A DNA stretch of 64,000 nt, taken from IMG/VR virus record IMGVR_UViG_3300035492_000044, positions 46,179-110,178 of that record; one strand, 5' to 3'. A model generated the notes under the pieces. It did no database searches, was not told the DNA's origin, and worked only from the letters and a program-made list of their open reading frames with translations. Of the stretch, positions 11,308 through 38,240 are shown one piece after another. The stretch comes from a virus. Its lineage: Duplodnaviria; Heunggongvirae; Uroviricota; Caudoviricetes. Position 1 is the first letter of the stretch. Each line of letters opens with the position of its first letter. Position numbers and translations under genes: made by a program.

Positions 11308-12172
11308 ATACGACGTAGTGCTGACAGGTTCTGATGGCTACATTGGGACCTATGTCAAGAATGCTCTTTCCACTATGGGTCTGAGTGTTCTCTGTGTTGA
11401 CCTCAAGTCAGGTCTTCACATGGCTGACGTCATGGGTGTATCTGCTAAGTGGTTGATCCACTTAGCAGCACTTATTGATGTTCGAGAGAGCCATGACAAG
11501 AACCATGCTTACTTCGACAATAACTGTGGCGCCTACTACGATCTGGTGATGAAGAATGGTAACACATTCGAAAATATCATCTATGCTTCGAGTGCTGCAG
11601 TTTATGACGACCACGGGAACATCAATCCTCAGTCTGTCTACGGGATGACTAAGCTTAATGGGGAATACATCACTAAGATGGCTTCTCCTACTAATCACCT
11701 AGTTCTCCGGTTCGCTAACCCAGTTGGAGTCAGCCCGGTTAGTACTCCTAAGATGGGTGATGGTCTATTCTTCAAACTGGCTCAAGCAGCCGTTGATGAG
11801 AAGGTCTTCTCCATCCACAACTCCGAACATATGAAGCGGGACTTCTTCCCGGTAATCTGGATTCCTCTTCTGATCTCTGCGGTCATTAAGGATGAGAACT
11901 TCAGCATGTTCGGTACTCATGACCTATGTAGCGGAAAGCTGGTCACTGTTCGCAGTGTCGTTGAAGCTCTCTGCGATCTTCATGAGATCGGGTACAAACT
12001 GGTAGCACCTCCCATCGGAACTCTGGAGAATGTGGAAGAGCGTGATTGCCCTATCCTCAACCAGTACCTGGATATCGTTTATCGTGGGTATGATCCAGTT
12101 GCATTTGTTACTGAGCAGTTCCCCAACTATCTCAAGTTAGCAGCTAAGATCGCTATCAAGTCCAGCGTTTAA
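11300..12172 (+). CDS. NAD-dependent epimerase/reductase family (SDR)
   Basis: 'LTGSDGYIGTYV' and 'YGMTKLNGEY' YxxxK; ATG overlaps the upstream stop. Confidence 0.7.
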   Translation: MAKYDVVLTGSDGYIGTYVKNALSTMGLSVLCVDLKSGLHMADVMGVSAKWLIHLAALIDVRESHDKNHAYFDNNCGAYYDLVMKNGNTFENIIYASSAAVYDDHGNINPQSVYGMTKLNGEYITKMASPTNHLVLRFANPVGVSPVSTPKMGDGLFFKLAQAAVDEKVFSIHNSEHMKRDFFPVIWIPLLISAVIKDENFSMFGTHDLCSGKLVTVRSVVEALCDLHEIGYKLVAPPIGTLENVEERDCPILNQYLDIVYRGYDPVAFVTEQFPNYLKLAAKIAIKSSV

Positions 12173-12191
12173 GTACGGCGAAAGCCTGTTA

Positions 12192-12226
12192 GGGTAATGG
12201 CGCGAATGTCATTACCCTATTTATTT
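12192..12226 (+). terminator. terminator-like hairpin GGGTAATG..CATTACCC + TATTTATTTC, fused to a degenerate class-B motif
   Basis: The hairpin begins at the GGGT of the motif's GTTAGGGT. Confidence 0.5.
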
Positions 12227-12242
12227 CTAGGAGATATGATTC

Positions 12243-13385
12243 ATGAAGATTTCGTACATCCAGTCTGCGTATGGTGGTGCTCAATGTAAGCGTGGGTATC
12301 CACACGTACGTGACATCGTACCTCTTCTGAAAGGCCTGATGAATGATGGCCATGAAATCACCCAAGTATTCCCAGACTACGCTAAGGGTGGTCTGATTGA
12401 CCGTTACTGGCATGACCCTAAGGCTCGTCAAGAGAACTTGATGGAGCACTTCCGTCTAGGTGTTCGTCCGTATCACCATATCCAGAAGGAAGATACTGAC
12501 ATCGTTCTGATGTACGCTATGCCGTGGAGCGACATCAACACCAACTATGTAATCGAGGGTCTTCAGTGGTACACTGACCGCAAGATCCCCATCTATTACA
12601 TCTGCGCTGACTACGAGATCGAGAATACTCGCGCTGGTGATAGCGTGATCTTCAAGATCATTCGCACTCGTCATCCAGAAATCTGGGCGAATATCAAACA
12701 TATCTTCACGTGCATCCCGTTCTATCCAGAGAAGCTGAAGAATGAATTCGGTCTGGAGAATGTGACGTACATTCCGACTACTTATGACCCGAGCTATGAA
12801 CTTCCGATCCGTAATGTTCACGAACGTGACAGTACCCTAATTTTCGGAGGTCCTATCAGCTTCCGTCATAACCTGTTCGCTCATATGGACAAGCTGGTTA
12901 AGTCATCTGACCGACTGTGCCACTTCTATAATGAGTCGGACAAAGCTCGACGTAACTCTCGTGCCAAGGATCCGATCGATGTACGTGCTACGTACAAGGA
13001 CTCTCCGAACGTAGTAGTCTATGATGAGCCGATTTACATGGCTTATCCCGAGTATCTGGCCAAGCTGACTAATAGCTGCTTCGCTGTGGGTGATTCTACC
13101 TTTACTGATCTGAACATCGGTCATGATGTCAATCACCACACTACTCGCATCATCGATGGTCTCTATGCCGGCTGCCTGTCTCTGATGACTGAGACTCAGT
13201 CCATCAAGTTGTATGTAGGGAATCCTGATCAGTTCTTTATCGAGAGATTCGATCAGGACGATTTCATGGCAGTTCTGTCTAACAGTATCTTCTTTGATGA
13301 TGCAGTAAGAGCTCGTCGAGAAGCATTCAATGAGGCATTCGGTATCGATCGCTGGTACCCAATCTTCGCATCCAAACTGGTATAA
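12243..13385 (+). CDS. GT-B glycosyltransferase resembling T4 DNA beta-glucosyltransferase (Bgt)
   Basis: 'MKISYI', 'LIFGGPISFRH' vs Bgt 'VIYGGSFRSGQRE', and 'CFAVGDSTFTDL..RIIDGLYAGCLSLMTE' vs Bgt 'LIIGDKNYND..RVWETMASDAVMLIDE' (Bgt sequence recalled from memory). Confidence 0.45.
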   Translation: MKISYIQSAYGGAQCKRGYPHVRDIVPLLKGLMNDGHEITQVFPDYAKGGLIDRYWHDPKARQENLMEHFRLGVRPYHHIQKEDTDIVLMYAMPWSDINTNYVIEGLQWYTDRKIPIYYICADYEIENTRAGDSVIFKIIRTRHPEIWANIKHIFTCIPFYPEKLKNEFGLENVTYIPTTYDPSYELPIRNVHERDSTLIFGGPISFRHNLFAHMDKLVKSSDRLCHFYNESDKARRNSRAKDPIDVRATYKDSPNVVVYDEPIYMAYPEYLAKLTNSCFAVGDSTFTDLNIGHDVNHHTTRIIDGLYAGCLSLMTETQSIKLYVGNPDQFFIERFDQDDFMAVLSNSIFFDDAVRARREAFNEAFGIDRWYPIFASKLV

Positions 13386-13387
13386 TC

Positions 13388-14266
13388 ATGCTCAAGAATA
13401 CAGCTCTAGGCTACGTGATTGCATTCTACAATGAGACTGTGATCGATCGTTTCGTCAAGGGTGGTATTACTCGTCGTGTACCCCATGGGTACACTTCGGG
13501 TGACTCCACATACAGCACTCTGCTTCCTCTGGCTGAGTTCACTCCATACATAACTGTCTTCTTCGACCCAGCACTGGAAGATAAGATTAAGGAGTCTGGT
13601 GCATTCGATCTTATCAAGACCTTGTCTGATGAGTCGATGATCACTTATCACCATGAGATGTGCAAGCAATTCAAGGGTCGCTGGAGACTGATGCAGGAGA
13701 TGACTCAGCGTCAAGACGCTGAGTACCTGTTTATCGTCGAAGATGACTTTGTGCTGAACAAGCTGAACTATGACACCACTGTGCTTGATAATGCACTGGA
13801 GTCTGGCAAGTACGACTTCATCAGTCTTAATCGCAACTACAGCATGAAGGCCACTGAGGCTGAACATACTCATTCGTTCTATGGTATCCCCATGAGCGAG
13901 CGTGGTATGCGTGATGGATTTATTGTTCGTCGCACTATGACGAATGATCTCTTCGAGTATGCCATCAAGCACTTCTTCAAAGAATACAAGGCTGGTAACT
14001 ACAAGTACCACCACATCCATCAGTGGGATGACTGCCTCTGGGTTAGTGGAGTCAAGCACAATCCTCAGGTATTCTCCAGTGTAGTATACGAAGGAACTAT
14101 TCCTCTGATTCATGCTGAGTTCTATAGTAAGTCCGCCAGGTCTTCCTTCGTTCGTAACTACGAGATAGGTGGAGAGATTGCTCCACTGGAATCGTTCCTA
14201 CAAGAACTGATTGTGGAGTCTCATGTTGACTTCGCAACTAAACTCTATGGTGAACTCAATGTCTGA
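13388..14266 (+). CDS. putative GT-A fold glycosyltransferase (GT25-like)
   Basis: 'EYLFIVEDDFVL' DxD-like motif. Confidence 0.35.
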   Translation: MLKNTALGYVIAFYNETVIDRFVKGGITRRVPHGYTSGDSTYSTLLPLAEFTPYITVFFDPALEDKIKESGAFDLIKTLSDESMITYHHEMCKQFKGRWRLMQEMTQRQDAEYLFIVEDDFVLNKLNYDTTVLDNALESGKYDFISLNRNYSMKATEAEHTHSFYGIPMSERGMRDGFIVRRTMTNDLFEYAIKHFFKEYKAGNYKYHHIHQWDDCLWVSGVKHNPQVFSSVVYEGTIPLIHAEFYSKSARSSFVRNYEIGGEIAPLESFLQELIVESHVDFATKLYGELNV

Positions 14267-15071
14267 GATGCCAACAAGACAGAAATTAGTGATGTGTATT
14301 CTTAGTGGTGGATTCGATCCTATCCACTCTGCGCACATCGACATGATCAAAGATGCTGCAGAGAAGTATGACTTCGTCATTGTCGGTGTCAATAGTGACG
14401 AGTGGCTGACTCGCAAGAAGGGCATGAACTTCATGTCCATCAAGGATCGTATTGCAGTAGTCTCTCAATTCAAGGGAGTAACTGGTGTTCATACGTTCGA
14501 TGACTCTGACGATACAGCTAACCAGCTGATTCTGAAGATCCATGAAGAGTATGGGAATAACTACAAGATCGTCTTCGGTAATGGAGGTGATCGCGTAGCT
14601 GGTAAGACTATCCCAGAAGAAACCCTATGTAAGACTCTAGGTATCGACATCGTCGATGGCCTTGGCGGTACTACTAAGGGTAATAGCTCTTCGTGGATCC
14701 TGGGTCGCTGGTCTGACTTCGCACGTGAGGCTCAGCCAGTAGTCCGTAGATGGGGCAAGTTCTTCAGTCTGTTCAAGCAGGATGGAGTCAAGGTCAAGAA
14801 GCTGGTGATTGATTCTGGTAAGAGTATCAGTCTTCAGCTTCATCATCATCGTAGTGAGCACTGGATCGTAACTAGCGGCGCTGGTCTTTTCAGTGTAGAT
14901 GGACACGAACAATATCTGTCAGAAGGTAAGTCGGTATTCGTACCGGCATGTGCCCAGCACAAGATTACCAATACTGGCTCAATTCCTCTCGAGATCATTG
15001 AGGTTCAAACTGGCAAAATACTGTCAGAAGAGGACATCATCCGTTTCGAAACTATTGAAGGGTCTCTGTAA
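14259..15071 (+). CDS. Sugar-phosphate nucleotidyltransferase (cytidylyltransferase-like HxGH) fused to a C-terminal cupin domain
   Basis: 'SGGFDPIHSAHIDMI' nucleotidyltransferase motif. C-terminal 'HHHRSEHWIVTSGAG..VPACAQHKITNTG' is a cupin, like ManC/RfaE-type enzymes. Confidence 0.7.
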   Translation: MSEMPTRQKLVMCILSGGFDPIHSAHIDMIKDAAEKYDFVIVGVNSDEWLTRKKGMNFMSIKDRIAVVSQFKGVTGVHTFDDSDDTANQLILKIHEEYGNNYKIVFGNGGDRVAGKTIPEETLCKTLGIDIVDGLGGTTKGNSSSWILGRWSDFAREAQPVVRRWGKFFSLFKQDGVKVKKLVIDSGKSISLQLHHHRSEHWIVTSGAGLFSVDGHEQYLSEGKSVFVPACAQHKITNTGSIPLEIIEVQTGKILSEEDIIRFETIEGSL

Positions 15072-16567
15072 TGACACTCAAGATTGGCATCACTTCGTTT
15101 GGCTCTGGTGTACGTGGTATCTCCAAGTACGAGGAGAGTCTTAGTAATAGCGGTATCATCGATTCTGGTCTCTTCCAGATGTTGGTCCAAGAGATGGGTG
15201 CTGAACTCATCATTGTAGGTGCCATGCAGAAACGCTGTAAGGATATTGTGCAGGATGGCACTAATCCTTATCACGAGCCGTGGATGGACGGTATCCGAGT
15301 AGTTCAGTCATGGGCTGATATGCCAGAAGACCTGGATTGCCTAGTAGTGCAGCAAGGCGCTGAGAATCTTCGATTCACTGTCAGCTTTGATGGTGTCACC
15401 TGCACTGCTGCCTATCATGTCTACAAACTGATGGACGTATACCGCAACACTCCTGTTGTATACTTCCAGACAGACTTTGGCACTCCTCTCTGGATGCCAG
15501 AGACTTATGGTGGATTCTTCGCCAAGGCATTCAAGCCAGATGCTCTGTACAAGAAGCGTAAGGTGTATGTCCTTCCTGCTGGTCACATCAACAATGATGC
15601 AGCACGTAAGATCATGGTTAATACTCTGGCCTATCGTCATAGTGGAATCGAGATCCTGGACAACTATCCTGACATTCACTTCCTGACTGACATCAACTAC
15701 AAAGATAGTTACCCTATCACCAGTGCTCCGACAGGTCTGGCATTCGCTGGTAAGTCACGGAGATTCGGTGACAGATCTCCTCTCGTACGAGACATCATTA
15801 AGGCTCTGCCCAGTGAGATCAGCTTCACTCTCATGGGCAAGTGGTCTGAGATGGTAACTGAAGTCCTAAGAGAAAATGATGTCAATAAGGGTTATCTGCA
15901 GCAACATAGCGAAGTCTTGAAGACTTACAATGAAGCAGGATTCACTCTGTACATTACTGCCCCAGAGTATCGCACCATTCGAGCCTTCACGTCTCGTATG
16001 ACTGATGCCATTGTGGCTAATTGCCTGCCTATCATCTGGCACGAAGACTGGGATGTAATCAAGCATCAGTTCGGAGTTGATCCTGACGTAACTACTATCT
16101 TGGCTGGACTGGTAGTTGAAAAGGCAGAAGATATTCCCCATAAGATGGTTGAGTTCTACGATAAGGACAAGCGTGAGAGTATCCTGTCCATGCTTCGTAA
16201 TACTTTCCTCTATCAGTCGGATACTGCCAAGGAGAACATTGGTCGTAAGCTGGAGTACATCATCAATCACGACGATGCTGATGAGACTGTAGCGGTACCT
16301 ACTGAGATCTTCGGCTTGTACGTTGATGGGCAGTTGTCGGCACGTCGTAATAAGGCAGCCACTACTGAAGAAGCTCAAGCACGCTATGAAGAAGCATTCA
16401 ATAGCGAGCTGACAGCTAATGACATCTACAACGTTAAGATGCAGACTGGACTCTTCATGGAGTACGGTAGCAAGGAGACGTTCAAAGACGTACCTCAAGA
16501 GTGGCTGGAGAAGACCTTCAATACTCCATCTACTAAACGCTTCCTCGAGTACGCCCTATCCAACTAG
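15071..16567 (+). CDS. hypothetical; weak resemblance to T4 alpha-glucosyltransferase (Agt) N-terminus
   Basis: 'KIGITSFGSGVRGISKY' vs Agt 'RICIFMARGLEGCGVTKF'; 'RSPLVRDIIKA' vs 'RSPAFIAIKEKG'. Tentative. Confidence 0.3.
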   Translation: MTLKIGITSFGSGVRGISKYEESLSNSGIIDSGLFQMLVQEMGAELIIVGAMQKRCKDIVQDGTNPYHEPWMDGIRVVQSWADMPEDLDCLVVQQGAENLRFTVSFDGVTCTAAYHVYKLMDVYRNTPVVYFQTDFGTPLWMPETYGGFFAKAFKPDALYKKRKVYVLPAGHINNDAARKIMVNTLAYRHSGIEILDNYPDIHFLTDINYKDSYPITSAPTGLAFAGKSRRFGDRSPLVRDIIKALPSEISFTLMGKWSEMVTEVLRENDVNKGYLQQHSEVLKTYNEAGFTLYITAPEYRTIRAFTSRMTDAIVANCLPIIWHEDWDVIKHQFGVDPDVTTILAGLVVEKAEDIPHKMVEFYDKDKRESILSMLRNTFLYQSDTAKENIGRKLEYIINHDDADETVAVPTEIFGLYVDGQLSARRNKAATTEEAQARYEEAFNSELTANDIYNVKMQTGLFMEYGSKETFKDVPQEWLEKTFNTPSTKRFLEYALSN

Positions 16568-16642
16568 GGCGCTTAGAGTACTGGAGAGCCAGTTAGGGTG
16601 GGAGGAGTTTCGGCTCCCTCACCCTTCTACTTAGGAGACATC

Positions 16643-17362
16643 ATGAGCTACATGTCGTCACAAGAGATTCTGGATAGGTTAGTGGAATTGTCTGGTAAAG
16701 AAGACAAGACTGAGCTCATCCAGTTCGTAACTGATAAGCTGCCATGCATTAAGAATTCTGATATGTGCCAGCCTATCTTCGAATTCATCTACAAGAACGT
16801 ACCTGATCCATGGCATTACATGGATGACCGTCATAATGCCTTCAATATGAAGTTCATGAATGATCTTCGTCCACATATCGAAGGTAAGTCCGTAGTGGAT
16901 ATTGGATCTGGCGTAGGTGTTAAGTGGAACTATGCAGGATTTCCACTTCAGTCTGTTACTCTGGTGGATATTAGCCCAGAGTGCATTGAGAAGGCTAAGG
17001 AGCTGACTAAGCCTAATTCCTTCTTCGTGAACTACGTAGTCGGTGGATTCCAGGACTACGATATCCCAGAAGACTTGGATGTTCTCTATACGATGAACGC
17101 CCTGTACTATGTTCCGACCGGAGCACGTACTACCTTCTACCGTAATGTGGCTGTGAAGAAGCCTCGCATGATTATTACGGGATCGAATAATGTCGACCCT
17201 AATGACGACTGGCGTGACTACATGATCAAGTGGCCAGAACTCCTCAGCACCAGATACAAGTGTCAAGATGTACTTGGGGACAAGAAGTATGAGCTGGCTG
17301 GTGTAGTCCACACCGTTGACGGTGACTTGGATTACTACCTAAACGTCTACGTTTTGAAATAA
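16643..17362 (+). CDS. Class I SAM-dependent methyltransferase
   Basis: 'VVDIGSGVGV' motif I and 'DLDVLYTMNALYYV'. Start moved to the ATG after RBS 'aggaga', downstream of the class-A motif hairpin. Confidence 0.55.
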   Translation: MSYMSSQEILDRLVELSGKEDKTELIQFVTDKLPCIKNSDMCQPIFEFIYKNVPDPWHYMDDRHNAFNMKFMNDLRPHIEGKSVVDIGSGVGVKWNYAGFPLQSVTLVDISPECIEKAKELTKPNSFFVNYVVGGFQDYDIPEDLDVLYTMNALYYVPTGARTTFYRNVAVKKPRMIITGSNNVDPNDDWRDYMIKWPELLSTRYKCQDVLGDKKYELAGVVHTVDGDLDYYLNVYVLK

Positions 17363-17404
17363 AACGTGTAAAATCACGACGTTTAAGTCTCTTGAAAACC
17401 TGTT

Positions 17405-17436
17405 AGGGTAGGGGAACTCTTCCTCTACCCTATTTT
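17405..17436 (+). terminator. terminator-like hairpin GGGTAGGGGAA..TTCCTCTACCC + TATTTTTG, fused to class-B motif
   Basis: Hairpin + T-run immediately after the motif. Confidence 0.5.
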
Positions 17437-17451
17437 TGTGAGTAATTATTC

Positions 17452-18456
17452 ATGAGAAATAAGCCTGCAGACATACCTTATTGTGGGGTAGATAGAGCCA
17501 AGATTCTATCAGCACGCCCAATAATTAATGCTGATGTTCTCAGAATGTACGTGTCGTGGATCAAGCAGAGAGCTCACGTATACTACATGAAAGAGATTGT
17601 CGGAGAGCCTGGTCCATGGACCACTGATCCGATTCTTAGTAAGTACAAGTTCACCAATATCCGGCGAGAACTGGATCGGGAGACTAAGTGGCTTATTGAT
17701 AATGTGATCAACAGTGATAAGCTGTCTATCCTGGATAAGGCACTCAATTGTGCATTATTCCGGTGCATCAATACTGGGCAGTACTTCCAGGAAGTCTGGC
17801 ATGGTCCACTACGCCTTAGTAATATGAAGGATTTCGATTTCAATCATCTTAATGATATGGAACGAGATTCGGAATATTCTGGACCTCTGCAGTCTAATGC
17901 GTACTTCCTTTCTCAGATGAGACGAGTGGCTAACGACCTATGCAAGAGGCAGAATGCTAGTCATCTAGCATACAGCAATACTGCTCTAGCGTACTTCATA
18001 TGGTTCCATCGCCGGACTATTGAAGATGCATTAGCAGCTGATACTCCATCTAAGGCTACGATTCTTCTGGAGACTATCCCAGGATTCGGTAAGTTCATGT
18101 CATACCAAGTGTGGGTAGACTGGACTTACATGGAAGACTACGAGTTTAGTGAAAATGAGTTCGTACTATCTGGACCAGGATGTGACCTAGGCCTGTCGTA
18201 TCTATTCAAAGACCAGGATGGCATGTCTCCAGAAGAGACTCTATTCTGGATGAGAGACAATCTAGTTAAAGTCTGCAGAGACCTTGAAATAGATTTTGAT
18301 CCTGGAGTGATTCAGAGCTACTTACCACCAGATAAACGTAACTTTGGTGTTATGCAGCACGAAAATGGTCTATGTGAGCTAAGCAAGTATTACCGTCTTC
18401 ATACAGGTGAACGTATGAGGGCAAGATATTATGCCCCTGGTACTGATAGTAAATAA
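17452..18456 (+). CDS. hypothetical protein
   Basis: ORF preceded by class-B motif 17377 and RBS. Confidence 0.4.
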   Translation: MRNKPADIPYCGVDRAKILSARPIINADVLRMYVSWIKQRAHVYYMKEIVGEPGPWTTDPILSKYKFTNIRRELDRETKWLIDNVINSDKLSILDKALNCALFRCINTGQYFQEVWHGPLRLSNMKDFDFNHLNDMERDSEYSGPLQSNAYFLSQMRRVANDLCKRQNASHLAYSNTALAYFIWFHRRTIEDALAADTPSKATILLETIPGFGKFMSYQVWVDWTYMEDYEFSENEFVLSGPGCDLGLSYLFKDQDGMSPEETLFWMRDNLVKVCRDLEIDFDPGVIQSYLPPDKRNFGVMQHENGLCELSKYYRLHTGERMRARYYAPGTDSK

Positions 18457-22251: not shown

Positions 22252-22253
22252 TC

Positions 22254-22307
22254 GGGGCGCTTACAGACTGTAAAAGCCAGTTAAGGTGCGAGGGGCGAAC
22301 TGCCCCT
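22254..22307 (+). promoter_or_regulatory. Class-A motif copy + hairpin AGGGGCGAACTGCCCCT
   Basis: 'GGGGCGCTTACAGACTGTAAAAGCCAGTTAAGGTGCGAGGGGCGAACTGCCCCT' upstream of 22330. Confidence 0.6.
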
Positions 22308-22329
22308 TCTACCTACTTTGGAGATCCAC

Positions 22330-22717: not shown

Positions 22718-22978
22718 ATGAAATTCATTACCTCCCTCGCTATCGTAATGGCTATGGCTACTATCGCCCAGGCCGATCCTGTCAACTCTACCATGGATCT
22801 GAAGGAGTTCACTCCTCAGATTGTACTGGCGAAGTTCTACGACTTCGATGCCGACGTAATCTGCTACGCTCAAACTACCAATACCTTCTCGTGTGTCTCG
22901 GTAAATACCTTGACCACTGATGGCCAAGATCACTATCTGGAGAAGAAGGAACAATATCTCCGGTCGATAGATAAGTGA
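22718..22978 (+). CDS. small secreted protein with signal peptide
   Basis: 'MKFITSLAIVMAMATIAQA' signal-peptide-like N-terminus. Confidence 0.5.
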   Translation: MKFITSLAIVMAMATIAQADPVNSTMDLKEFTPQIVLAKFYDFDADVICYAQTTNTFSCVSVNTLTTDGQDHYLEKKEQYLRSIDK

Positions 22979-23672: not shown

Positions 23673-23963
23673 ATGAGTAAAGCGAAAGAGGTGTTATCTC
23701 ACCTTAACGAGATAAACGAGGCTGCAGCTGTTGATATGCAGGGAGCAGCTAAGGCTATTAAGGCAGAGCTTGCCGGCAAGTATAACCGTGCAGTTCTATA
23801 CTCTGATCGAGATCAGCCAGGTGTGATCAATGTGGCTTTTAATATTGATATGGACGATGTTCCGGACTCTGTGGTTTATGGCCTAGAGAACATAGGGAAG
23901 AAGTTTAATGTTAAAGTGTGGTCAAGCCGAGCAATATACGGTGACAGCCTGGAGAGAATGTGA
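23673..23963 (+). CDS. paralog-family protein (N-terminal 'MSKAKEVLSHLNEI')
   Basis: Shares the N-terminal peptide with the four downstream paralogs; start chosen at the second ATG to match the family. Confidence 0.5.
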   Translation: MSKAKEVLSHLNEINEAAAVDMQGAAKAIKAELAGKYNRAVLYSDRDQPGVINVAFNIDMDDVPDSVVYGLENIGKKFNVKVWSSRAIYGDSLERM

Positions 23964-24862
23964 TGAGTAGGGCTAAATCTCTTATCGACTTATGTGAAGC
24001 AGTCGATAAATACGGGGTAGGTCAGGTGATTGATGTCGACTGGGATGGTCCCAGTAAGGCGCTAATTGCTAGTCGCGAAGGATCCGACAGCTACATACTG
24101 AAACGGGTTATCAATGGGAAGCCGTCTAATAAAGACGAAGACCATTGCGAAGTCAGTAAGGCTGAACTGGAAGATATGATGGAGTCCAAGACTGAATTCA
24201 ATCTAATCAAGTTCAACGACAGAAAGACTTACGACGCTGCCCTTCGTAAGTTCGATTCCCAGATCGAATTTGAGAATGAGGATCCGGACGAGCTTACTCT
24301 GAAGGTTCCATCGAGGGTATCCGATGCTATTGAAGACTACCTTAACGACAGTTCTCTGTACAAGGTGACCTTTAATATCCAAGAGGCAGTAGAAGATAAT
24401 GGATGCTACTGGGTTTGGACTAAGAGACTTAGTCACTTACAGAAATATGACTGGGTTATCGAGCGAGGCTATGAAACAGAGCAGGATGCCTATTCTGCCG
24501 CTAAGTCGATTATCCATAACGGTAAGAGGCCAGTGCTAGCGGCTATTGGCACTGAGACTATGCCTGGTTATCTGGTTAACTACGGGATGACTTTCAAAGA
24601 AGTCAAGAGTAAACCTCTAGCTAAAGCTGTTAATGAGGCCCTTGACCTTACTACTATGATGAAAGCGGGTAAGACTTATGCGGTCTACATGAATGATCCC
24701 CGTACTAATGAGTGGTCGTATCTTATGGGGTACTACGAAGCCAAACCTAATCAGGATCTCAAAGCATTCAAGAAGAGCATGCACCCAGACTGGGCGTACG
24801 TTTATGTGTTTGAAGAACCTGTCAGAGACAACAAGAAGGTAAAAGAGGTAGGTGAAAAATGA
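23960..24862 (+). CDS. paralog-family protein (N-terminal 'MSRAKSLIDLCEAV')
   Basis: Conserved N-terminal peptide; tandem array. Confidence 0.55.
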   Translation: MMSRAKSLIDLCEAVDKYGVGQVIDVDWDGPSKALIASREGSDSYILKRVINGKPSNKDEDHCEVSKAELEDMMESKTEFNLIKFNDRKTYDAALRKFDSQIEFENEDPDELTLKVPSRVSDAIEDYLNDSSLYKVTFNIQEAVEDNGCYWVWTKRLSHLQKYDWVIERGYETEQDAYSAAKSIIHNGKRPVLAAIGTETMPGYLVNYGMTFKEVKSKPLAKAVNEALDLTTMMKAGKTYAVYMNDPRTNEWSYLMGYYEAKPNQDLKAFKKSMHPDWAYVYVFEEPVRDNKKVKEVGEK

Positions 24863-25788
24863 ATAAGGCTAAGAAACTACTAAGCATATGTGAATCTATT
24901 CAGCAAGGAGATCGAGTTTTCCTGACTTCCGCTGGATGGTGGAAAAGCAGAGCCACTGCTATGACGGAAGAGTGGTCTCATGAGGACCGTCCAGGTCACG
25001 TCATTATTCTGAAGGACGATAGTTCAGATCCGTCTTACGTAGTAAATAGAAAGACAATTCACAATGGGCCTCTGGCTGGTAAGACCTTCCAGAATCTCAT
25101 TATGAAGGGGATTGAAGAATCGGGATCTCCGTACCAGGATCTGGTGGCTAAGTACATCAAAGAGAATGGTAAAGATGACAAGCCCGTCATCAATGCTCTT
25201 GAGAACTTCGCCAATATGTGCGATGATGGCGCAGATGAACAGGAAGCATTTGACGATGCTTTCCGTAAGTTCGCTCATGGTACCAAGGAGAATATCAAGC
25301 ATAAGCTGAAAGGCTTGGGTATTGATATTCAGGAGTCAAAGGACGAAGGATTCAAAGTTATTTGGACTGATCGTGACTATAAGGAGTTTAGCAAGAACTT
25401 TAGTAATAGCAAGTTAGGATCTCCAGATGAAGCTGAGAATAAAGCGCGTAGCTTCATGAAGAAACTGGAGAAGGATGAGAATATTCGCTCAGTGTCAATG
25501 AAGTCTATTAATGAGGCCCAAGCTGCTACGTGGGTAAAGACCACAGCTGACGGCAATCGTGCTCTCGAGTACTTTGATAAGTCAGGTAGCGGCGAGACTT
25601 ACGTTGTAGTTAAGGATCCTAAAGTATACAACAGATTCGAAGTGTATGCTATCGGATGGGAAGATGACTCTGTATCCTTCAAGGTAGATAATTACGACGC
25701 CTTCAAGAATACCTACGATAAGTCATTCGGCCATGGACCAGTTCCAGGAGAGAATGAGTATAATTATCTAGTAACAGGTAAGAAGTAG
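24859..25788 (+). CDS. paralog-family protein (N-terminal 'MNKAKKLLSICESI')
   Basis: Conserved N-terminal peptide; translationally coupled. Confidence 0.55.
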   Translation: MNKAKKLLSICESIQQGDRVFLTSAGWWKSRATAMTEEWSHEDRPGHVIILKDDSSDPSYVVNRKTIHNGPLAGKTFQNLIMKGIEESGSPYQDLVAKYIKENGKDDKPVINALENFANMCDDGADEQEAFDDAFRKFAHGTKENIKHKLKGLGIDIQESKDEGFKVIWTDRDYKEFSKNFSNSKLGSPDEAENKARSFMKKLEKDENIRSVSMKSINEAQAATWVKTTADGNRALEYFDKSGSGETYVVVKDPKVYNRFEVYAIGWEDDSVSFKVDNYDAFKNTYDKSFGHGPVPGENEYNYLVTGKK

Positions 25789-25789
25789 G

Positions 25790-26164
25790 ATGAATAGGTC
25801 TCAGAAACTAATATCTCTTTGTGAATCTATAAAACAAAAGAAGATTTCTGAAGAAGAGGCCAAGTCTAAAGGATGGTACTTACTCCCAGAACATAAGAAG
25901 TGGTTGGCAGACAATCTTTCAACTCTAGTTGAGGTTAATGTCGATGACTGTTATCAATGGGAATATAATCCACCTCTTGATGAAAACAACAAGACTGTGA
26001 TTAGTATAGTAGATGATATGAAACAGGGTTATCGTCTTCCTATTATCGAAATACGATATGACAGCTCTCGTAGAAAATACAAGATCTCTGACGGTCAGCA
26101 TAGATGGGTTGCATGGGGAAGTCTAGGTAATAAGACCATCCCAGCCTTGCTAACTAAAGAGTGA
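25790..26164 (+). CDS. paralog-family protein (N-terminal 'MNRSQKLISLCESI')
   Basis: Conserved N-terminal peptide. Confidence 0.55.
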   Translation: MNRSQKLISLCESIKQKKISEEEAKSKGWYLLPEHKKWLADNLSTLVEVNVDDCYQWEYNPPLDENNKTVISIVDDMKQGYRLPIIEIRYDSSRRKYKISDGQHRWVAWGSLGNKTIPALLTKE

Positions 26165-26286
26165 TTTAATGCTGGTACTCGATTTAGGGTACCAGCTTTT
26201 TATATGCCATTCATTCCAACGTCCAGATAAGTCGAAACCCTGTAAGGTCGGGGAAGGTCCTCCACTTAATTAGGAGTTTAATTAGT

Positions 26287-26571
26287 ATGTCCATTACTAT
26301 CAATGTCTTCAATGAGAATCGTGAGCTGGTATCTGATTATCCATTTCTGCGTATGTGGAAACAGTTCATTGATGCGTGGACTGGCAAGGACCTGTATATT
26401 GAGGAAGAAGGATGCTATCTCTGCGAGCTATCTCGTCTCGATGCTAAACACTTCTTCTCCTTCATTCTGAATGTAGGTACTAATGATAATGTCTGGGACA
26501 AGATGGATCTTCAGAAGCTCCTTCGTGACATCGAGTATTATAAAGACTGCACAGTGAGGATTGTTGGATGA
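26287..26571 (+). CDS. hypothetical protein
   Basis: ORF after class-B-like motif 26218. Confidence 0.4.
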   Translation: MSITINVFNENRELVSDYPFLRMWKQFIDAWTGKDLYIEEEGCYLCELSRLDAKHFFSFILNVGTNDNVWDKMDLQKLLRDIEYYKDCTVRIVG

Positions 26572-27101
26572 GTCATGTTCGGATCTACCACTACCACATA
26601 ACCGTGGAGTGTGATCGTGAAGAACTGATTAATTTCTCCAAACTATTAGGAGCTAAGGCAACTACTATCGATTTGCATCGAGATGCCAGGATGCAGATTG
26701 ACCGTATGCTAACCAAATACTCCACCGATCTGGCAGATATGAAGAGTATTACTGCCAGTCATTCAACCCAGATCCACGAATTAGGATATGAGGTAAAGAG
26801 AGCAAAGATCGAGGAAGTCCTTAGTACCTTCGTAGGTATTGACATAAAGGACTACTTGTATCTTGAGGCTCATATCAAAGTGGCTGATGACGGCCATCTC
26901 CCGGACGTAGATGGATTCTCAATGTCCACTAATCCATTCCAGGGAAATAGATTCTATAATGCTCGTATTTATACTGAGGAAGACCTCGTACGATACTGGC
27001 GGAATATTAAGTATCTACCTAACATAGTCAAGACTCAACTCGAAGGAGTAGTCTATGACTCAAACCAAGACCACGACAAGTGGTGGAGTAATCATGAATA
27101 A
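26568..27101 (+). CDS. hypothetical protein
   Basis: ORF, ATGA-coupled to the upstream gene. Confidence 0.4.
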   Translation: MSHVRIYHYHITVECDREELINFSKLLGAKATTIDLHRDARMQIDRMLTKYSTDLADMKSITASHSTQIHELGYEVKRAKIEEVLSTFVGIDIKDYLYLEAHIKVADDGHLPDVDGFSMSTNPFQGNRFYNARIYTEEDLVRYWRNIKYLPNIVKTQLEGVVYDSNQDHDKWWSNHE

Positions 27102-27588
27102 AGCACAGAAAGTTCTTAGTAAGCTTCGTAGCATTAATGAGGGCTATATCGCTATCTCATTTGATGCAGATACACGTCAGCGTCTGTCGGAGATCTGTGA
27201 TCTTATTGGCGAGACTTCTATCATGGAGGAAATCTCCTTCGTCGATAGTAACGAGTTCCATACGACCCTCATGTACTCTCCCACTACCCCGGTACTAGAC
27301 ATCATTCCGGAACTGGTAGGTAAGACTATCGTGGCACATAACCCACGATTCCAACTGTTCGGACCAGAAAATGATGTACTCGTAATTCAGTTCGAATCTC
27401 CCGAGCTGGATATTCTGAATCAGAAGTACAAGGATATGGGTGAGATTCCAAGTGAACTGAGTGCAGAGTACAAGCCTCACATTACTCTGGCTAAGGATGT
27501 AGTAGGCCTTGAAATGCCTACTCTTCCGGCACTACCTCTCAACATCCCATTGGTTATTACTGACCATTACGCTGAAGAAATCAAGTAG
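27094..27588 (+). CDS. 2H phosphoesterase (LigT/Acb1-like) carrying the paralog-family N-terminal peptide
   Basis: Two HxT/S motifs, 'FHTTLMYS' and 'PHITLAKD'; N-terminal 'MNKAQKVLSKLRSINEG'. Confidence 0.7.
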   Translation: MNKAQKVLSKLRSINEGYIAISFDADTRQRLSEICDLIGETSIMEEISFVDSNEFHTTLMYSPTTPVLDIIPELVGKTIVAHNPRFQLFGPENDVLVIQFESPELDILNQKYKDMGEIPSELSAEYKPHITLAKDVVGLEMPTLPALPLNIPLVITDHYAEEIK

Positions 27589-27593
27589 GTAAT

Positions 27594-28418
27594 ATGGCCA
27601 ATAAGGTTTATCGTGATGGCGAGCGAGACGGATACGGTCCTCGCCATACTAAGAACTTTAATCCCAATAACTACATCACTGTCTTTACTGATGCCTCCTA
27701 TTGTGATAGGACAGGTAAAGGAGGTATGGCTGCCTGGATCAAGGCAGCCGATGGAGTTACCCATAAACTGTACGAGAGCTTCCGAGCTAAGGACTCTGTA
27801 TCAGCAGAGAAGCAGGCTCTACAAACAGCGCTTGACTACATTATTCAGAACTTCCACACTGAGAACAAGACTCTTGTAATCAACTGTGACTGCATGCCTG
27901 TACTTGAGAGTCTGGATGTAGAGGAGATTGAAGAAGCTGGGATGTTCCTGAAGATTACTCTGAAACATGTCAAGGCTCACCGAGGTGTAAATGGACCTCG
28001 TTCATCAGTGAACACCTGGTGTGACAGCAGAGCTAAGGAGATCATGAGACTCTTCCGGGATCAGAATACGGAAGTAGGGTTTACTGTAGAAGTAGAAGAC
28101 TTCGCAGCCAGACATCGTGATAGTAAGAAGACAATAGAGGAACCATCTATGCAGGGTGAGTACAAGACATTCAACGAATGGAAGTCGTTGGGTAGAATAG
28201 TATGTAAGGGAGAACGCTCTCATAAGAGGAATGATGAGGGCAAGGCTGTATTTCATTATGACCAGACGGATAGTCTAGGTAAGAGTGAGGCTCCTCGTAA
28301 TGTCAATCACGTGAGAGGTTCCGGCATACCGGATCTTGAGAATTCTCGTGAGAATGAGAATCTGGTTAGTTCCTATACAATGTACGATGAGTACTGCAAG
28401 GAAGCTCCCTTCATGTAA
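27594..28418 (+). CDS. RNase H1-like ribonuclease with C-terminal extension
   Basis: 'VFTDASY' (D), 'AEKQAL' (E), 'INCDCM' (D), 'KAHRG..NTWCDSRAK' (H/D) catalytic pattern. Confidence 0.7.
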   Translation: MANKVYRDGERDGYGPRHTKNFNPNNYITVFTDASYCDRTGKGGMAAWIKAADGVTHKLYESFRAKDSVSAEKQALQTALDYIIQNFHTENKTLVINCDCMPVLESLDVEEIEEAGMFLKITLKHVKAHRGVNGPRSSVNTWCDSRAKEIMRLFRDQNTEVGFTVEVEDFAARHRDSKKTIEEPSMQGEYKTFNEWKSLGRIVCKGERSHKRNDEGKAVFHYDQTDSLGKSEAPRNVNHVRGSGIPDLENSRENENLVSSYTMYDEYCKEAPFM

Positions 28419-30579: not shown

Positions 30580-31112
30580 TGAATAAGCCCTGGATGATTC
30601 AAGTTGATAACGCAATGCAGACTAACTATCAGTACGCGCTTATCATGCCAGTTGGTGATCTAAGTGATCTTCCTAACTTCAAGCCAGAATTAACTCCATT
30701 CCAGATGCTGGAGTATGGAGTATTTGGTGGTAAGTACTTCGGTGATATCCCAGATACTACGGAGTACAACGAAGAGTTCAGGGAGCTTATTCGTCGTAAG
30801 TCGGCAGGGGTAGGTAAGCCCTACGATGTAAATCTCAATTACTTCAAGGTAGATGCAAGTCAGTCTCTGACTGATTGGGTAGCTAGTGGCTGGGTACGTG
30901 AGCAAGATCCTCGTGGATGGTTCGAGTGGTATTGCCGTACCTGGTTCGGTCGCAGAAGTCCCGACGATAATCGGCAGATTGGAAGATGGTCAGCCATTAC
31001 TCGCCATATTGGACAGATTAAGAAGCACTGTGAAATAGGTGACCATAACTGCCGTCCTCGTCAACGTCAAGCTCTACTTCACTGGGCTTATGACACTGTA
31101 GGTAAGTATTAA
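30579..31112 (+). CDS. hypothetical W/R-rich protein
   Basis: 'PRGWFEWYCRTWFGRRSPDDNRQIGRW'; no family recognised. Confidence 0.4.
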   Translation: MNKPWMIQVDNAMQTNYQYALIMPVGDLSDLPNFKPELTPFQMLEYGVFGGKYFGDIPDTTEYNEEFRELIRRKSAGVGKPYDVNLNYFKVDASQSLTDWVASGWVREQDPRGWFEWYCRTWFGRRSPDDNRQIGRWSAITRHIGQIKKHCEIGDHNCRPRQRQALLHWAYDTVGKY

Positions 31113-31543
31113 TGGAAAGAATAGATTCATTCAGAGGAGAGTATGAATTCCTCTCCAATATGTACCCAGTTAAGCTGGTGTACGAAGGGATCGAATATCC
31201 GTCTTCTGAGAATGCCTATCAAGCAGCTAAGTACACGGATGTCAAAGTCAAGATGCATATAGCTACCTTGACACCTAAGGAATCGAAGAAGTATTCACGT
31301 GAGCACCCAATTACTACTCCTAATTGGAATGCTGTTCGTCTCCACACTATGTACCGAATCCTTGAGATTAAGTTCTCTGTCCCTGAGTTGTTATTCAAGC
31401 TCTTGAAGACAGGTAATGCTGAGCTTGTTGAAGGGAACTGGTGGGGAGACATCTACTGGGGTAAAGTAGATGGATGTGGCCATAACTTCATGGGCAAGCT
31501 ATTAACCGGAATACGTGAAGTAAATAAGGACGTGAGGATATAA
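31112..31543 (+). CDS. NADAR (YbiA-like, DUF1768) domain protein
   Basis: 'FRGEYEFLSNMYP', 'SSENAYQAAKY', and the C-terminal 'ELVEGNWWGDIYWG' match the NADAR/YbiA pattern. Confidence 0.75.
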   Translation: MERIDSFRGEYEFLSNMYPVKLVYEGIEYPSSENAYQAAKYTDVKVKMHIATLTPKESKKYSREHPITTPNWNAVRLHTMYRILEIKFSVPELLFKLLKTGNAELVEGNWWGDIYWGKVDGCGHNFMGKLLTGIREVNKDVRI

Positions 31544-36059: not shown

Positions 36060-36144
36060 CCGGGTATGGTGAAATCGGTAGACACAAGAGCCTTAAACCC
36101 TCTGGACTATTGTCATGCCAGTTCGAGTCTGGCTACCCGGACCA
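36060..36144 (+). tRNA. tRNA-Leu (anticodon TAA), type II
   Basis: Acceptor CCGGGTA/TACCCGG, long variable arm, T-arm GCCAG-TTCGAGT-CTGGC, encoded CCA. Confidence 0.75.
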
Positions 36145-36359
36145 TATTTCTAAACGACGTTTTACTACGTCGAAACCCTGTTAGGGTGGAAGACGAGTGT
36201 ATTTGAGAAGGCTGGCCAGAATAGCTTCTGGTAGGGTGAACTCTCTGGAGACCGATGACGCCATGCTTCGGTAGCGCATGAAGATGATCCGTCAGTCCTT
36301 CTCCAATACAATCTAGACCGACGTCCAAATAAATCGAAACCCTGTTAGGTTGGAAGTGC

Positions 36360-36438
36360 GATTAAAAGGACCCTAGGCTAACCTCAGTAGGTCTCCCCCA
36401 GATGCTGAAGCTGGATGTCCTAGGATCCTTTTAATCTC
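36360..36438 (+). repeat. Long imperfect inverted repeat (~17 bp arms, ATTAAAAGGACCCTAGG / CCTAGGATCCTTTTAAT) forming an ~80 nt stem-loop
   Basis: Lies directly between class-B motif 36319 and tRNA-Arg. Confidence 0.5.
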
Positions 36439-36443
36439 ATTTC

Positions 36444-36520
36444 GCGTCCATAGCTCATCTGGATAGAGCAGGGGATTTCTAATCCCCTGGTGGTAGGTTC
36501 GAGTCCTACTGGACGCGCCA
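36444..36520 (+). tRNA. tRNA-Arg (anticodon TCT)
   Basis: Acceptor GCGTCCA/TGGACGC, anticodon loop TTTCTAA in stem GGGGA/TCCCC, GGTTCGAGTCC T-arm, CCA. Confidence 0.8.
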
Positions 36521-36969
36521 TATACCCGGCACTTACTGATGTCGTAGCTCGATAAACTCTAGTATCATTAGTTAGGATCGAAACCTCTACTAATGCTCTA
36601 TTAGATAAGGTTGGGTCAGTGGAGCAGTAGCCCTTACGTGGAGTGGGTATGTGTCAGAAGAGGCACTCCGCTCGATAACTGTCACGTGTGAATAATGAAT
36701 ACTATGCAGCTAGTTTTATTATTCTGGGTTTAGATGTCATGCTGCTACTCATGCATTATTTCTCCTGTTGGAGAGTGCAGGCGGAGAGGAGGCATCCTCG
36801 TAGAAGCCGAGTAGAGTCGACCACGGTCTAGCGGTGGAGGCAGTGCCCGTACTGTCATTTAGAATGATATCCTTCGGCTGTAAGGATGACGGGTAATAGA
36901 GCAAGCGGTGAGTACTAACTGCCTGCAGGACTTTGATGTGGTGTCAGAGTCCTGTGGAGTAAGTATTCT

Positions 36970-37046
36970 GCGGAATTAGCTCAGTTGGATAGAGCATCTG
37001 CCTTCCAAGCAGAGGGTCACGAGTTCGAGTCTCGTATTCCGCTCCA
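36970..37046 (+). tRNA. tRNA-Gly (anticodon TCC)
   Basis: Acceptor GCGGAAT/ATTCCGC, loop CTTCCAA, U73, CCA. Confidence 0.8.
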
Positions 37047-37050
37047 TTAT

Positions 37051-37127
37051 TGGGGTATAGCACAGTTGGTAGTTGCGTCTGACTGTTAATCAGAATGTCG
37101 TAGGTTCGAGCCCTACTACCCCAGCCA
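37051..37127 (+). tRNA. tRNA-Asn (anticodon GTT)
   Basis: Acceptor TGGGGTA/TACCCCA, loop CTGTTAA, GGTTCGAGCCC T-arm, CCA. Confidence 0.7.
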
Positions 37128-37371
37128 AATTTGGTGTTACTCCCGATCGAAAGATACTGAAACATGAAATCGTCTCCGCACGATGTAGGCCTTACGAGGT
37201 CATGATCAGCCAAGAGATGACAGGTCCGAGTAGATTAGTAGCACCGTCTTAATCACGCAGAGGCGGACTGCATCGAGAGCCATTAGAAAAGTGTAACTCC
37301 ACGAGAACCTCAGACTCTGGACTACATGACCGGCACTAGCTTCACTCGATCTAATAATTAAACGCAACCAT

Positions 37372-37456
37372 GCGGATGTGGTGAAATTGGTAGACACACC
37401 TGGTTTAGGTCCAGACGCCTACGGGCGTGAGAGTTCGAATCTCTCCATCCGCACCA
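37372..37456 (+). tRNA. tRNA-Leu (anticodon TAG), type II
   Basis: Acceptor GCGGATG/CATCCGC, long variable arm, loop TTTAGGT, CCA. Confidence 0.65.
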
Positions 37457-37711
37457 TATTCGAGACCCCACTAGTCAGCCGAAGTACTGGTGGAGATTAG
37501 TGTCATGAGCTAGTCTGCCCAGGTCTCGAATCAAAACAGGAGAGTCCTTAGATGGTGCTATCTAGCCAGTTGCATTCGTAGTCTACCCGTCGGCTACATT
37601 GAATGCCTAAGTGACTCTCCGCCTATTATGGGGTATGCCTCGTCTAAAGCATTGGGATCTGTGATGATACCAGGGTGGGTAACTACGTAGTCCCACATAC
37701 TCCACCAGTTT

Positions 37712-37787
37712 GCCGGTATAGCTCAGCTGGTAGAGCAGCTGACTTGTAATCAGCAGGTCGTGAGTTCGAATCCCACTGCCGGCACCA
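37712..37787 (+). tRNA. tRNA-Thr (anticodon TGT)
   Basis: Acceptor GCCGGTA/TGCCGGC, stem GCTGA/TCAGC with loop CTTGTAA, CCA. Confidence 0.8.
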
Positions 37788-37799
37788 TATTGTGGTTAC

Positions 37800-37916
37800 T
37801 GGTTCCTATCATTATGTGGTTGGAAGCAAAAAGTCTAGTAATCACAACCTAATTGCTGTAATCCCTCTTGAAGTGAAACATGATGGACGGGAGTTCGACT
37901 CTCCCCAGCTCCACCA
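37800..37916 (+). ncRNA. ssrA: tmRNA acceptor piece (3' half of a permuted ssrA): T-arm + 3' acceptor strand + CCA
   Basis: 'GGACGGGAGTTCGACTCTCCCCAGCTCCACCA' ends 37916 and closely matches the E. coli tmRNA 3' end '..GGGTTCAACTCCC.CCAGCTCCACCA'. No matching 5' acceptor strand upstream. Left boundary is approximate. Confidence 0.65.
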
Positions 37917-37986
37917 TAGTTACCCTGGTAGTGACAGCCTTTGAGTGCGGTCTTAATCTACCATGGCTATCAGAGTAACTATGATG

Positions 37987-38240
37987 GGGCTGATCTGGAT
38001 TCGACATTGTGCGTAGTGAATAGAGGCAGCACAGGTAGATGACTGCCTGAAGTTGAGCCACCTTGCGGAAGGTCTGGGCTCAGCTGAAATAGCATAAATC
38101 AAGTAACTGCCAACGATGAATCGTTCGCACCTCTGGCTCTGGTTGCTTAAGTAACCTGATGCTGGTCGGGTATCTTCGGATCGCTCTCCTGCTATAGCTA
38201 ATACCTATAGTTGCCTCGGAACAGAAAGAGAGCACCTATT
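37987..38240 (+). ncRNA. ssrA: tmRNA coding piece (5' acceptor strand GGGGCTGATCTGGATTCGAC..., tag ORF ANDESFAPLALVA-stop)
   Basis: 'GGGGCTGATCTGGATTCGAC' at 37987 matches the tmRNA 5' end 'GGGGCUGAUUCUGGAUUCGAC'. Tag frame 'GCC AAC GAT GAA TCG TTC GCA CCT CTG GCT CTG GTT GCT TAA' at 38109-38150. Lies downstream of the CCA end, so the gene is circularly permuted. 3' boundary approximate. Confidence 0.7.

Follow-up and report, generated by a model that had tools for sequence, protein, structure and literature searches.

A constant N-terminal peptide on five genes of a tailed phage, one of them Acb1-like, as a candidate capsid-targeting propeptide

Why should five phage proteins that differ almost everywhere else begin with the same short peptide? 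The question is raised by a stretch of 64,000 nucleotides from a Caudoviricetes phage (IMG/VR record IMGVR_UViG_3300035492_000044, positions 46,179 to 110,178; hereafter, the window), in which the products of five genes on the + strand, starting at positions 23673, 23963, 24859, 25790, and 27094, share an N-terminal peptide of 12 to 16 residues that we call the tag. The answer that we favor, with moderate confidence, is that the tag is a divergent capsid-targeting propeptide, which would be processed by a prohead protease of family S77 and would load a diversifying set of effectors, including an anti-defense protein of the Acb1 family, into the head for co-injection.

A six-frame motif scan located the tag pattern at exactly five sites in the window, each at the start of an open reading frame (ORF) on the + strand. 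A position-specific scoring matrix (PSSM) built from the five peptides gave them scores of 35 to 46, with all remaining start codons of the window below 12. The tagged genes, all on the + strand, are gene 1 (23673 to 23963, 96 aa; tag MSKAKEVLSHLNEINE, with LNE and INE), gene 2 (23963 to 24862, 299 aa; MSRAKSLIDLCEAVDK, with LCE), gene 3 (24859 to 25788, 309 aa; MNKAKKLLSICESIQQ, with ICE, and a modular cargo), gene 4 (25790 to 26164, 124 aa; MNRSQKLISLCESIKQ, with LCE), and gene 5 (27094 to 27588, 164 aa; MNKAQKVLSKLRSINE, with INE, followed by GY and then by an Acb1 domain). A homolog of gene 2 in a related contig carries the tag (V)SKARNLIELFKSLDKY. The consensus, M-[NS]-[KR]-[AS]-x-x-[LV]-[LI]-x-x-[LC]-x-E..., is short and amphipathic. 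These results agree with a first-pass annotation of the locus, which had claimed five genes with a common N-terminal peptide and divergence after it. The consensus quoted there describes genes 3 and 4 better than the other three. Two details had to be changed. The start of gene 2, given there as GTG at 23960, is more likely the ATG at 23963, which has an SD-like (Shine-Dalgarno-like) GGAG upstream and is the start chosen by an independent gene call; and the five genes are not strictly consecutive, since genes 4 and 5 have two untagged genes, a strong terminator, and a promoter-like motif between them. That the peptide might be an artifact of mis-called starts, which the same annotation had named as grounds for rejecting its proposal, was ruled out by the peptide itself, by the SD-like sites, and by the independent gene call, all of which uphold the starts.

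The peptide is the part that these proteins have in common, as pairwise similarity (BLASTP) ends after about 16 to 21 residues. Genes 2 and 3 are the sole pair alike beyond the tag, and only weakly (23% over 178 aa; E = 0.004), so that they are possibly distant paralogs. Identical tag residues are encoded by different codons in six of six cases between genes 1 and 3 and in six of nine between genes 1 and 5. The tag codons show 31 to 73% nucleotide identity, the following 16 codons 17 to 33%, and the 30 nucleotides upstream of the five genes are unrelated to one another. Because the codons differ and nucleotide identity is low, the tag is a peptide signal, and neither a DNA or RNA element nor the trace of a recent duplication, which indicates selection at the level of the peptide. 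A DNA-level repeat or a translation element as the basis of the tag was ruled out by the same codon analysis.

The first-pass annotation had also seen a cleavage-type motif in the peptide, and (L/I)-x-E is indeed present in all five tags, the conserved feature being a Glu, not an Asp, with a hydrophobic residue at P3. The strictness of this preference could be measured outside the window. A degenerate DNA pattern for the tag located two IMG/VR contigs with large arrays of tagged genes. In IMGVR_UViG_3300001687_000013, about 47 of 63 ORFs along some 27 kb (contig positions 1 to 27159) carry the tag in the form M-x-K-[AS]-x-[DEK]-[IVL]-L-x-[LI]-[IL]-E. Among 39 tags picked from this contig by an anchor blind to the downstream residues, positions +2 to +5 held Glu in 35 and Asp in 4, Asp and Glu being equally abundant in the protein bodies, and 31 of the 39 contained [LIVFM]-x-E (background, 1.8% per position). 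We then ranked 387 ORF N-termini, those of the window and of phages EP_H11, YerA41, and T4, with a PSSM built only from the tags of this contig. Genes 3, 4, 2, and 1 of the window took the first four places and gene 5 fell in the 99th percentile. Since a profile that had seen only the contig puts the window tags at the top, both sets belong to one motif family. The tagged cargo of the contig includes a Tad6 anti-Thoeris homolog (PF25188, 1e-28), a RimK-type ATP-grasp enzyme (with Zn-protease), DUF5661, and DUF3990. In the second contig, IMGVR_UViG_3300022700_000208, the terminase genes are flanked by tagged genes, including one for an intein-containing AAA+ ATPase.

What follows the tag is best defined in gene 5. 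Described in the first-pass annotation as a 2H phosphoesterase, its product can be placed in the Acb1 family: it matches PF23474 over residues 18 to 163 (47.1 bits, cutoff 27; E = 2.6e-12) and phrog_755 (2.5e-19), and both 2H catalytic motifs are present, in FHTTLMY (HTT) and PHITLAK (HIT). We assign it on these matches to the Acb1-type 2H phosphodiesterases that counter the cyclic-oligonucleotide-based antiphage signaling system (CBASS), with predicted hydrolysis of cyclic oligonucleotides. An AlphaFold2 model made without an alignment was unusable (predicted local distance difference test score, 36.7), and a word-indexed homolog search with this protein returned no match except itself. We rejected the possibility that the tag is part of the Acb1 fold, as the Pfam domain begins at residue 18 and T4 Acb1 is without the tag. 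The Acb1 orthologs of phages EP_H11 and IME392 begin with MNKSEALLGLIQSIDEGY and MNKAEVVLGLVQSVDEGY, respectively, and those of Vibrio phages 150E35-1 and 1.031.O with MYSASKILDICERLDVENNY, so that the tag is kept on Acb1 of Escherichia coli and Vibrio phages despite an overall identity of about 27 to 42%. In both Vibrio phages the tagged Acb1-like gene lies within the baseplate module, between the genes for the PAAR spike tip and the baseplate wedge, on the same strand (12001 to 12474 in 150E35-1; 11956 to 12429 in 1.031.O), a position that suggests late co-expression with structural genes. Another Vibrio phage, Va1, encodes an Acb1-like protein with the extension MNPKSFREHLNQTSTDFITE followed by A, and the neighboring products begin MKFKQFLAES and MKFKEYLNEL, which resembles the capsid-targeting signal (CTS) of T4.

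The cargoes of genes 1, 2, and 3 had no family match in Pfam, PHROGs, or NCBIfam. That of gene 4 is weakly ParB/Srx-N-like, with matches to PF02195 (17.7 bits) and TIGR00180 (23.2) that lie below the respective cutoffs of 26.3 and 58.45, a match to phrog_1033 (3.6e-5), and a DGQHRW motif. With a cargo set of Acb1, a ParB-N-like protein, and three proteins without a family match, the locus looks like an internal-protein-like array. No near-identical DNA was found among cultured phages, tblastn of the concatenated proteins 1 to 4 against phages gave no match, and genes 3 and 5 have no close relatives in IMG/VR. The sequence of the window is also present on a 110-kb JGI contig and on Logan contigs of run SRR11791770.

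Gene 3 provides a link to T4. Its product is modular, with an N-domain at residues ~10 to 67, a widespread domain of about 65 aa ("VVWTDRDYKE") at ~155 to 222, and a C-domain at ~213 to 305. A phmmer search against 1.84 billion representative proteins found P0103, a protein of 77 aa beginning with MKTFKDFLTERINEGDRV and 50% identical to residues 10 to 67 of gene 3 (BLASTP, 1e-18; phmmer, 2.9e-10). In the alignment, MKTFKDFLTE-RINE-GDRV of P0103 faces MNKAKKLLSICE-SIQQ-GDRV of gene 3, and LTE pairs with ICE. The P0103 gene sits after uvsY and after a second gene beginning MKSFKDFLTE, which places it in a T4-like array of the ip type; for reference, the N-termini in T4 are MKTFKEFTST in IPI and MKTYQEFIAE in IPII and IPIII. 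Since LTE and ICE pair on homologous cargo, the window tag stands where a genuine T4-type CTS stands, and we regard the two as positionally equivalent on the strength of this alignment. The domains of gene 3 also occur with other partners. In P0100, from a relative of the window phage, the tag MNKSQKVISICESV is joined directly to the C-terminal half of gene 3 (81% identity), and further homologs of gene 3 domains begin with MSKAKEILEKLNIFNEG, MNKSEKLVHLCTSINEA, or MSIAARLLNVFDVSVNES. These combinations indicate that the tag is modular, older than this array, and swapped among cargoes.

In T4, the CTS is a propeptide of 10 to 20 residues and the sole feature common to the internal proteins; through it they dock on the scaffolding core, and gp21 cuts it off after the Glu of (I/L)-x-E. 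The window resembles the T4 internal proteins IPI, IPII, IPIII, and Alt in several respects: a short N-terminal peptide alone is common to side-by-side and otherwise unrelated small proteins, its last residues form the gp21 site, (L/I)-x-E, and anti-defense functions occur among the cargo (IPI* against GmrSD), encoded in T-even phages by hypervariable ip loci. The differences are also clear. The window tag is about 2 to 6 residues longer and of another sequence (MNKAKKLLSICE versus MKTYQEFIAE), the phage is no relative of T4, Acb1 itself carries the tag, and packaging is known in T4, whereas here we infer it from sequence. The first-pass annotation had asked whether the peptide is a T4-like capsid-targeting signal; the position on homologous cargo agrees with this, but in sequence the tag is not significantly similar to the T4 CTS.

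T4 also has an Acb1 gene beside a CTS-bearing one, as acb1 (57B) adjoins ipI (NC_000866, 73952 to 74410 and 73591 to 73878), in an island that recalls the window, where Acb1 and tag-bearing genes are likewise neighbors. T4 Acb1 begins MMEFKDFSTG, which resembles MKTFKEFTST of IPI and the metagenomic MKTFKDFLTE; in contrast to the window protein, its nine-residue N-terminus (MMEFKDFST) is without the Glu cleavage site, and packaging of T4 Acb1 is not known. The likeness of the gp57B N-terminus to the CTS of the neighboring IPI raises a question for T4 itself, and this N-terminus could be a relic, or else a targeting signal that is not cleaved.

A comparable case is known from giant phages, in the propeptides that their ejection and inner-body proteins carry (SPN3US; cf. 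phiKZ gp93). Gp53 and gp54 of SPN3US, paralogs of about 34% identity, keep an identical N-terminus of 15 residues (MANFVKSKLARESVE) that holds AxE-12, so that, as in the window, a constant peptide has a motif ending in Glu, here Glu-12 or Glu-15. SPN3US also has a gp21-like protease, as do relatives of the window phage, and its authors liken the propeptide to the T4 CTS. SPN3US and phiKZ differ in their A/S/G-x-E specificity, in that most of their propeptides exceed 100 residues, and in the location of the genes in head regions.

The processing machinery that the favored reading requires occurs in relatives of the window phage. Among the products of the window are a multisubunit RNA polymerase with split beta' subunits, a DNA polymerase of family A, a topoisomerase II, a ribonucleotide reductase, sugar-nucleotide enzymes, and a protein like 5-hydroxymethyluracil DNA kinases. 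Its nearest cultured relatives, at about 40% protein identity, are Acinetobacter phage Ab1-TPeters, Escherichia phages EP_H11 and IME392, Ralstonia phage RP13, and Rhizobium and Vibrio phages. The phage belongs to the RP13-like/YerA41/SP-15 group, which has hypermodified thymidine. A hypermodification block at 9173 to 18456 (DegT aminotransferase, epimerases/dehydratases, a nucleotidyl-transferase/cupin protein, a methyltransferase, and a PF18723 kinase-like protein) fits this assignment. In EP_H11, a head protein of 478 aa is a protease-scaffold fusion: phrog_207 ("head maturation protease") is matched at 1.5e-15, the alignment with T4 gp21 spans the catalytic residues H85 and S140, and PF03420 (Peptidase_S77) is present in dozens of homologs. 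No match to it was found in a PDB sequence search. The capsid protein of the relatives matches Pfam Gp23, that is, it is gp23-like, and YerA41 is annotated with a "prohead core protein protease."

Tag-like N-termini are also found on head proteins of this clade. A conserved and very basic head-module protein of 92 to 96 aa begins with MVTAEEVLSSVDEA, MHAKDLLEIIAES, or MTTAKTFLLKLEEA, and a small protein encoded between the portal and protease genes has a tag-like start ending in INE followed by DAAT. The capsid protein itself begins M-x-x-K-I-K-T-L-x-E-[IV]-N-E-[SA], with a conserved F-C-E-[ST] further in. In YerA41, the only group member whose virion proteome is known, through mass spectrometry, five neighboring genes of the head module (205c, 206c, 208c, 209c, and 210c) share MS(R/K)ISxLNxKFE(A/S), a constant N-terminus of 12 residues in which Glu-12 is followed by Ala or Ser (e.g., MSRISQLNKKFE followed by AADE, with A13). 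The GenBank record marks four of these five as structural. Table S2 of the YerA41 paper lists g008 and g009, which correspond by gene length to 206c and 205c, as late and virion-associated; the part of that paper available to us does not remark on the common N-terminus. A virion-associated ATP-grasp enzyme of YerA41 carries ...RRLLNKFEAADE. Over its first 50 kb, YerA41 has no obvious tag apart from that of the ATP-grasp protein, and the tagged paralogs were found only in the head module. These paralogs resemble the window genes in belonging to the same phage group, in being small neighboring genes, and in having a constant N-terminus that ends in Glu (MSRISxLNKKFE, then A); they differ in having K-F-E instead of L/I-x-E and in being embedded in the head module.

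Together these observations point to a mechanism in three steps. By its tag, each newly synthesized protein would dock on the scaffolding core while the prohead assembles; a prohead protease of the T4 gp21 type (S77) would then remove the tag, cutting after the conserved Glu of (L/I)-x-E; and the mature cargo would be kept in the head and enter the next host cell with the DNA. Through duplication and domain swapping, a constant delivery tag would have been joined to exchangeable effector domains. For this phage, core docking, cleavage after the Glu, packaging, and ejection are all predictions from sequence. That the array encodes delivered effectors, as the first-pass annotation had proposed, has comparative support in the CTS position, the S77 protease of the clade, the YerA41 virions, and the Acb1 and Tad6 cargoes.

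Several observations weigh against this mechanism. Of the five cargoes, just one can be shown to have an anti-defense identity. The array is set among nucleotide-metabolism and other non-structural genes: the unit of genes 1 to 4 stands behind a class-B promoter-like motif (see below), which also precedes RNA polymerase genes, and the Acb1 unit behind a class-A motif, which also precedes topoisomerase, helicase, and DNA polymerase genes. These are not known late genes; by analogy with YerA41, they are early or middle genes. EP_H11 and IME392, the closest relatives in culture, carry the tag outside the head module on Acb1 alone. The protease, scaffold, and capsid genes of this phage lie outside the 64-kb window, and the S77 machinery is seen in its relatives. 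The tag of YerA41 has Lys at P3 (KFE), and neither Leu nor Ile. In some contigs about 75% of the genes are tagged, including that of the intein-containing AAA+ ATPase, and so many proteins to package could speak for a more general role. Finally, the ungapped tag profile placed T4 IPI, IPII, and IPIII only in the 26th to 82nd percentile of the background. Because the profile fails to recognize the T4 sequences, direct sequence homology to the T4 CTS was set aside as unsupported, and we treat the tag as a functional analog or a very distant relative of the CTS, homology being unproven.

Among the alternatives, one that we consider unlikely keeps the prohead-protease site and gives it a regulatory role: the tagged proteins would be pro-forms, activated or destroyed late by the S77 protease and not packaged. 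For Acb1, this would be the moment when protease activity can trigger CBASS. Such a role would suit the (L/I)-x-E motif with its strict preference for Glu, the presence of an S77 protease in the clade, and the position of the Glu in Acb1 orthologs, just ahead of the first strand of the 2H domain. It would also suit a 2026 preprint in which T4 gp21 cleaves CD-NTase loops at I/LxE and thereby activates CBASS, an effect masked by Acb1 and Acb2. However, T4 gp21 works inside proheads on core-bound substrates; access to the protease would therefore itself imply targeting. Pro-form regulation also leaves unexplained the YerA41 paralogs in virions and the tag-like N-termini on head-module proteins.

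It is quite unlikely that the tag is a recognition signal unrelated to the capsid, either a degron for ClpXP or another AAA+ system that limits early effectors or a membrane or localization helix. Its extreme N-terminal position and its amphipathic, Lys-rich character would fit such a signal, and a degron would fit the location of the array in a non-structural region and the very many tagged genes of some contigs. The N-terminal ClpX signals of lambda O (MTNTAKILNF) and Dps (MSTAKLV) are superficially tag-like. Under the tag profile, however, these two N-termini reach only the 73rd to 74th percentile of the background. The near-invariant Glu with a hydrophobic P3 would remain unexplained, Glu not being part of ClpX N-motif-1, as would the alignment with the T4 CTS on homologous cargo and the presence of YerA41 paralogs in virions.

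We think it very unlikely that the tag targets the tail or baseplate (for example, the spike or tube lumen) and not the head. The Vibrio phage Acb1-like genes located between PAAR and baseplate-wedge genes would be accounted for in this way; against it stand the tag-like N-termini of the capsid protein, of the protein encoded between portal and protease, and of the small basic head-module protein, and the cleavage-type motif and the equivalence to a T4-type CTS both point to the head. Least credible, and largely refuted by the codon analysis and the profile ranking, is the idea that tandem duplication, or recombination of cassettes at gene starts, left the shared N-terminus behind as a neutral feature, or that it acts at the nucleic-acid level as a translation-initiation region. 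The genes are in tandem, genes 2 and 3 may be distant paralogs, and A-rich second and third codons favor translation; yet the tags have low nucleotide identity, different codons, and unrelated upstream sequences, and the peptide is kept on Acb1 across phages and, in contigs that are unrelated, on cargo that is unrelated too.

Should the tag prove to be a packaging signal, the phage would bring ready-made effectors, an anti-CBASS nuclease among them, into the cell along with its DNA and ahead of any expression of phage genes. Delivery of ready-made proteins for defense evasion has been documented so far mainly for T4 IPI, T4 Alt, and P1 Dar. The Dar anti-restriction proteins of P1 are packaged in the head and delivered with the DNA, and their N-terminal regions are needed for packaging; they differ from the window proteins in having no known short tag common to the cargoes, in their ordered, hierarchical incorporation, and in relying on another head protease. 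What is new here is most likely the occurrence of the T4 internal-protein and CTS logic in another phage lineage, with another tag and new cargo. We suggest more tentatively that such tags form a widespread and largely unrecognized delivery system outside the T4 family, one that pre-loads large, fast-evolving arsenals of effectors. If this were true, cargoes such as Acb1, Tad6, ADP-ribosyltransferase-like, ATP-grasp, and ParB-like proteins, and dozens more, would act at DNA entry, Acb1 packaged in advance would represent a novel way of evading CBASS, and whole "ejectomes" and new anti-defense proteins could be read from genomes by their tag signature. As the same logic recurs in YerA41, in the head modules of the clade, and in huge arrays with Tad6, the N-terminal motif could flag candidates for injected effectors. 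The tag could also serve as a portable loader of foreign proteins into non-T4 capsids.

The tagged genes are distributed over two predicted transcription units. The first probably starts at a class-B promoter-like motif found in the intergenic listing and by motif scan at 22252 to 22329 on the + strand (GGGGCGCTTACAG-N-AAAGCCAGTTAAGGTG, then a GC stem), its promoter role being a prediction, and ends after genes 1 to 4 at an intrinsic terminator (26171 to 26196, +; a 10-bp stem with 6 GC pairs, then TTTTTAT). The second, with the tagged Acb1 gene, is preceded by a class-A promoter-like motif at 26214 to 26258 on the + strand (AACGTCC-N-GTCGAAACCCTGTAAGGTCGGGG). Two untagged + strand genes outside the tag family, at 26287 to 26571 (94 aa) and 26568 to 27101 (177 aa, phrog_22504), come before gene 5. 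The latter overlaps the Acb1 gene and contains H-I-T and H-I-K motifs (YHYHITVE and EAHIKVA), and its product might be a second, divergent 2H-type phosphoesterase. Within the predicted unit of genes 1 to 4, an ORF at 22718 to 22978 encodes a protein of 86 aa with a signal-peptide-like N-terminus (MKFITSLAIVMAMATIAQA).

Both motif classes recur, with about 16 copies of class A in the window and about 10 of class B on the + strand (motif scan). Class A has the general form ACGACGTT-N10/11-TCGAAACCCTGTTAGGGTGG and precedes replication and nucleotide-metabolism genes (+ strand examples at 5221, 9134, 17399, 26239, 33054, 34500, 35918, 36177, 36341, 41525, 43660, 47912, and 52488). Class B has the form GGGGCGCTTA(C/G)AG-N7/8-AAAGCCAGTTA(A/G)GTGG and precedes genes for RNA polymerase subunits, among others (4819, 16589, 22277, 28463, 32200, 57602, 62001, 62358, and 63765, all +). 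A GC-rich stem often lies behind motifs of either class. These bipartite intergenic motifs are probably promoters for the phage RNA polymerase. Sigma-70 promoters were not enriched around the array (10 found versus 16 expected). EP_H11 has an analog of class A, CCGCTCTTT-N10-TCGAAAGGCTGTTAAAGTG, in 23 copies located only on the strand of the non-structural genes.

Downstream of Acb1, the neighborhood looks like an accessory or anti-defense region. The gene directly 3' of it (27594 to 28418) encodes an RNase H domain and a C-terminal segment with weak matches to ArdC-N and to small PHROGs, and a NADAR-domain protein (ADP-ribose processing) is encoded 3.5 kb further, at 31112 to 31543. The window also contains a permuted, two-piece transfer-messenger RNA (tmRNA) of betaproteobacterial type at 37807 to 38159 on the + strand (RF04321, 104 bits; RF01850, 86.6 bits), with the tag peptide ANDESFAPLALVA according to ARAGORN. 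Eight tRNA genes (36060 to 37787, 39627 to 39716, and 41889 to 41966) form a cluster around it, and the tmRNA may hint at a betaproteobacterial host.

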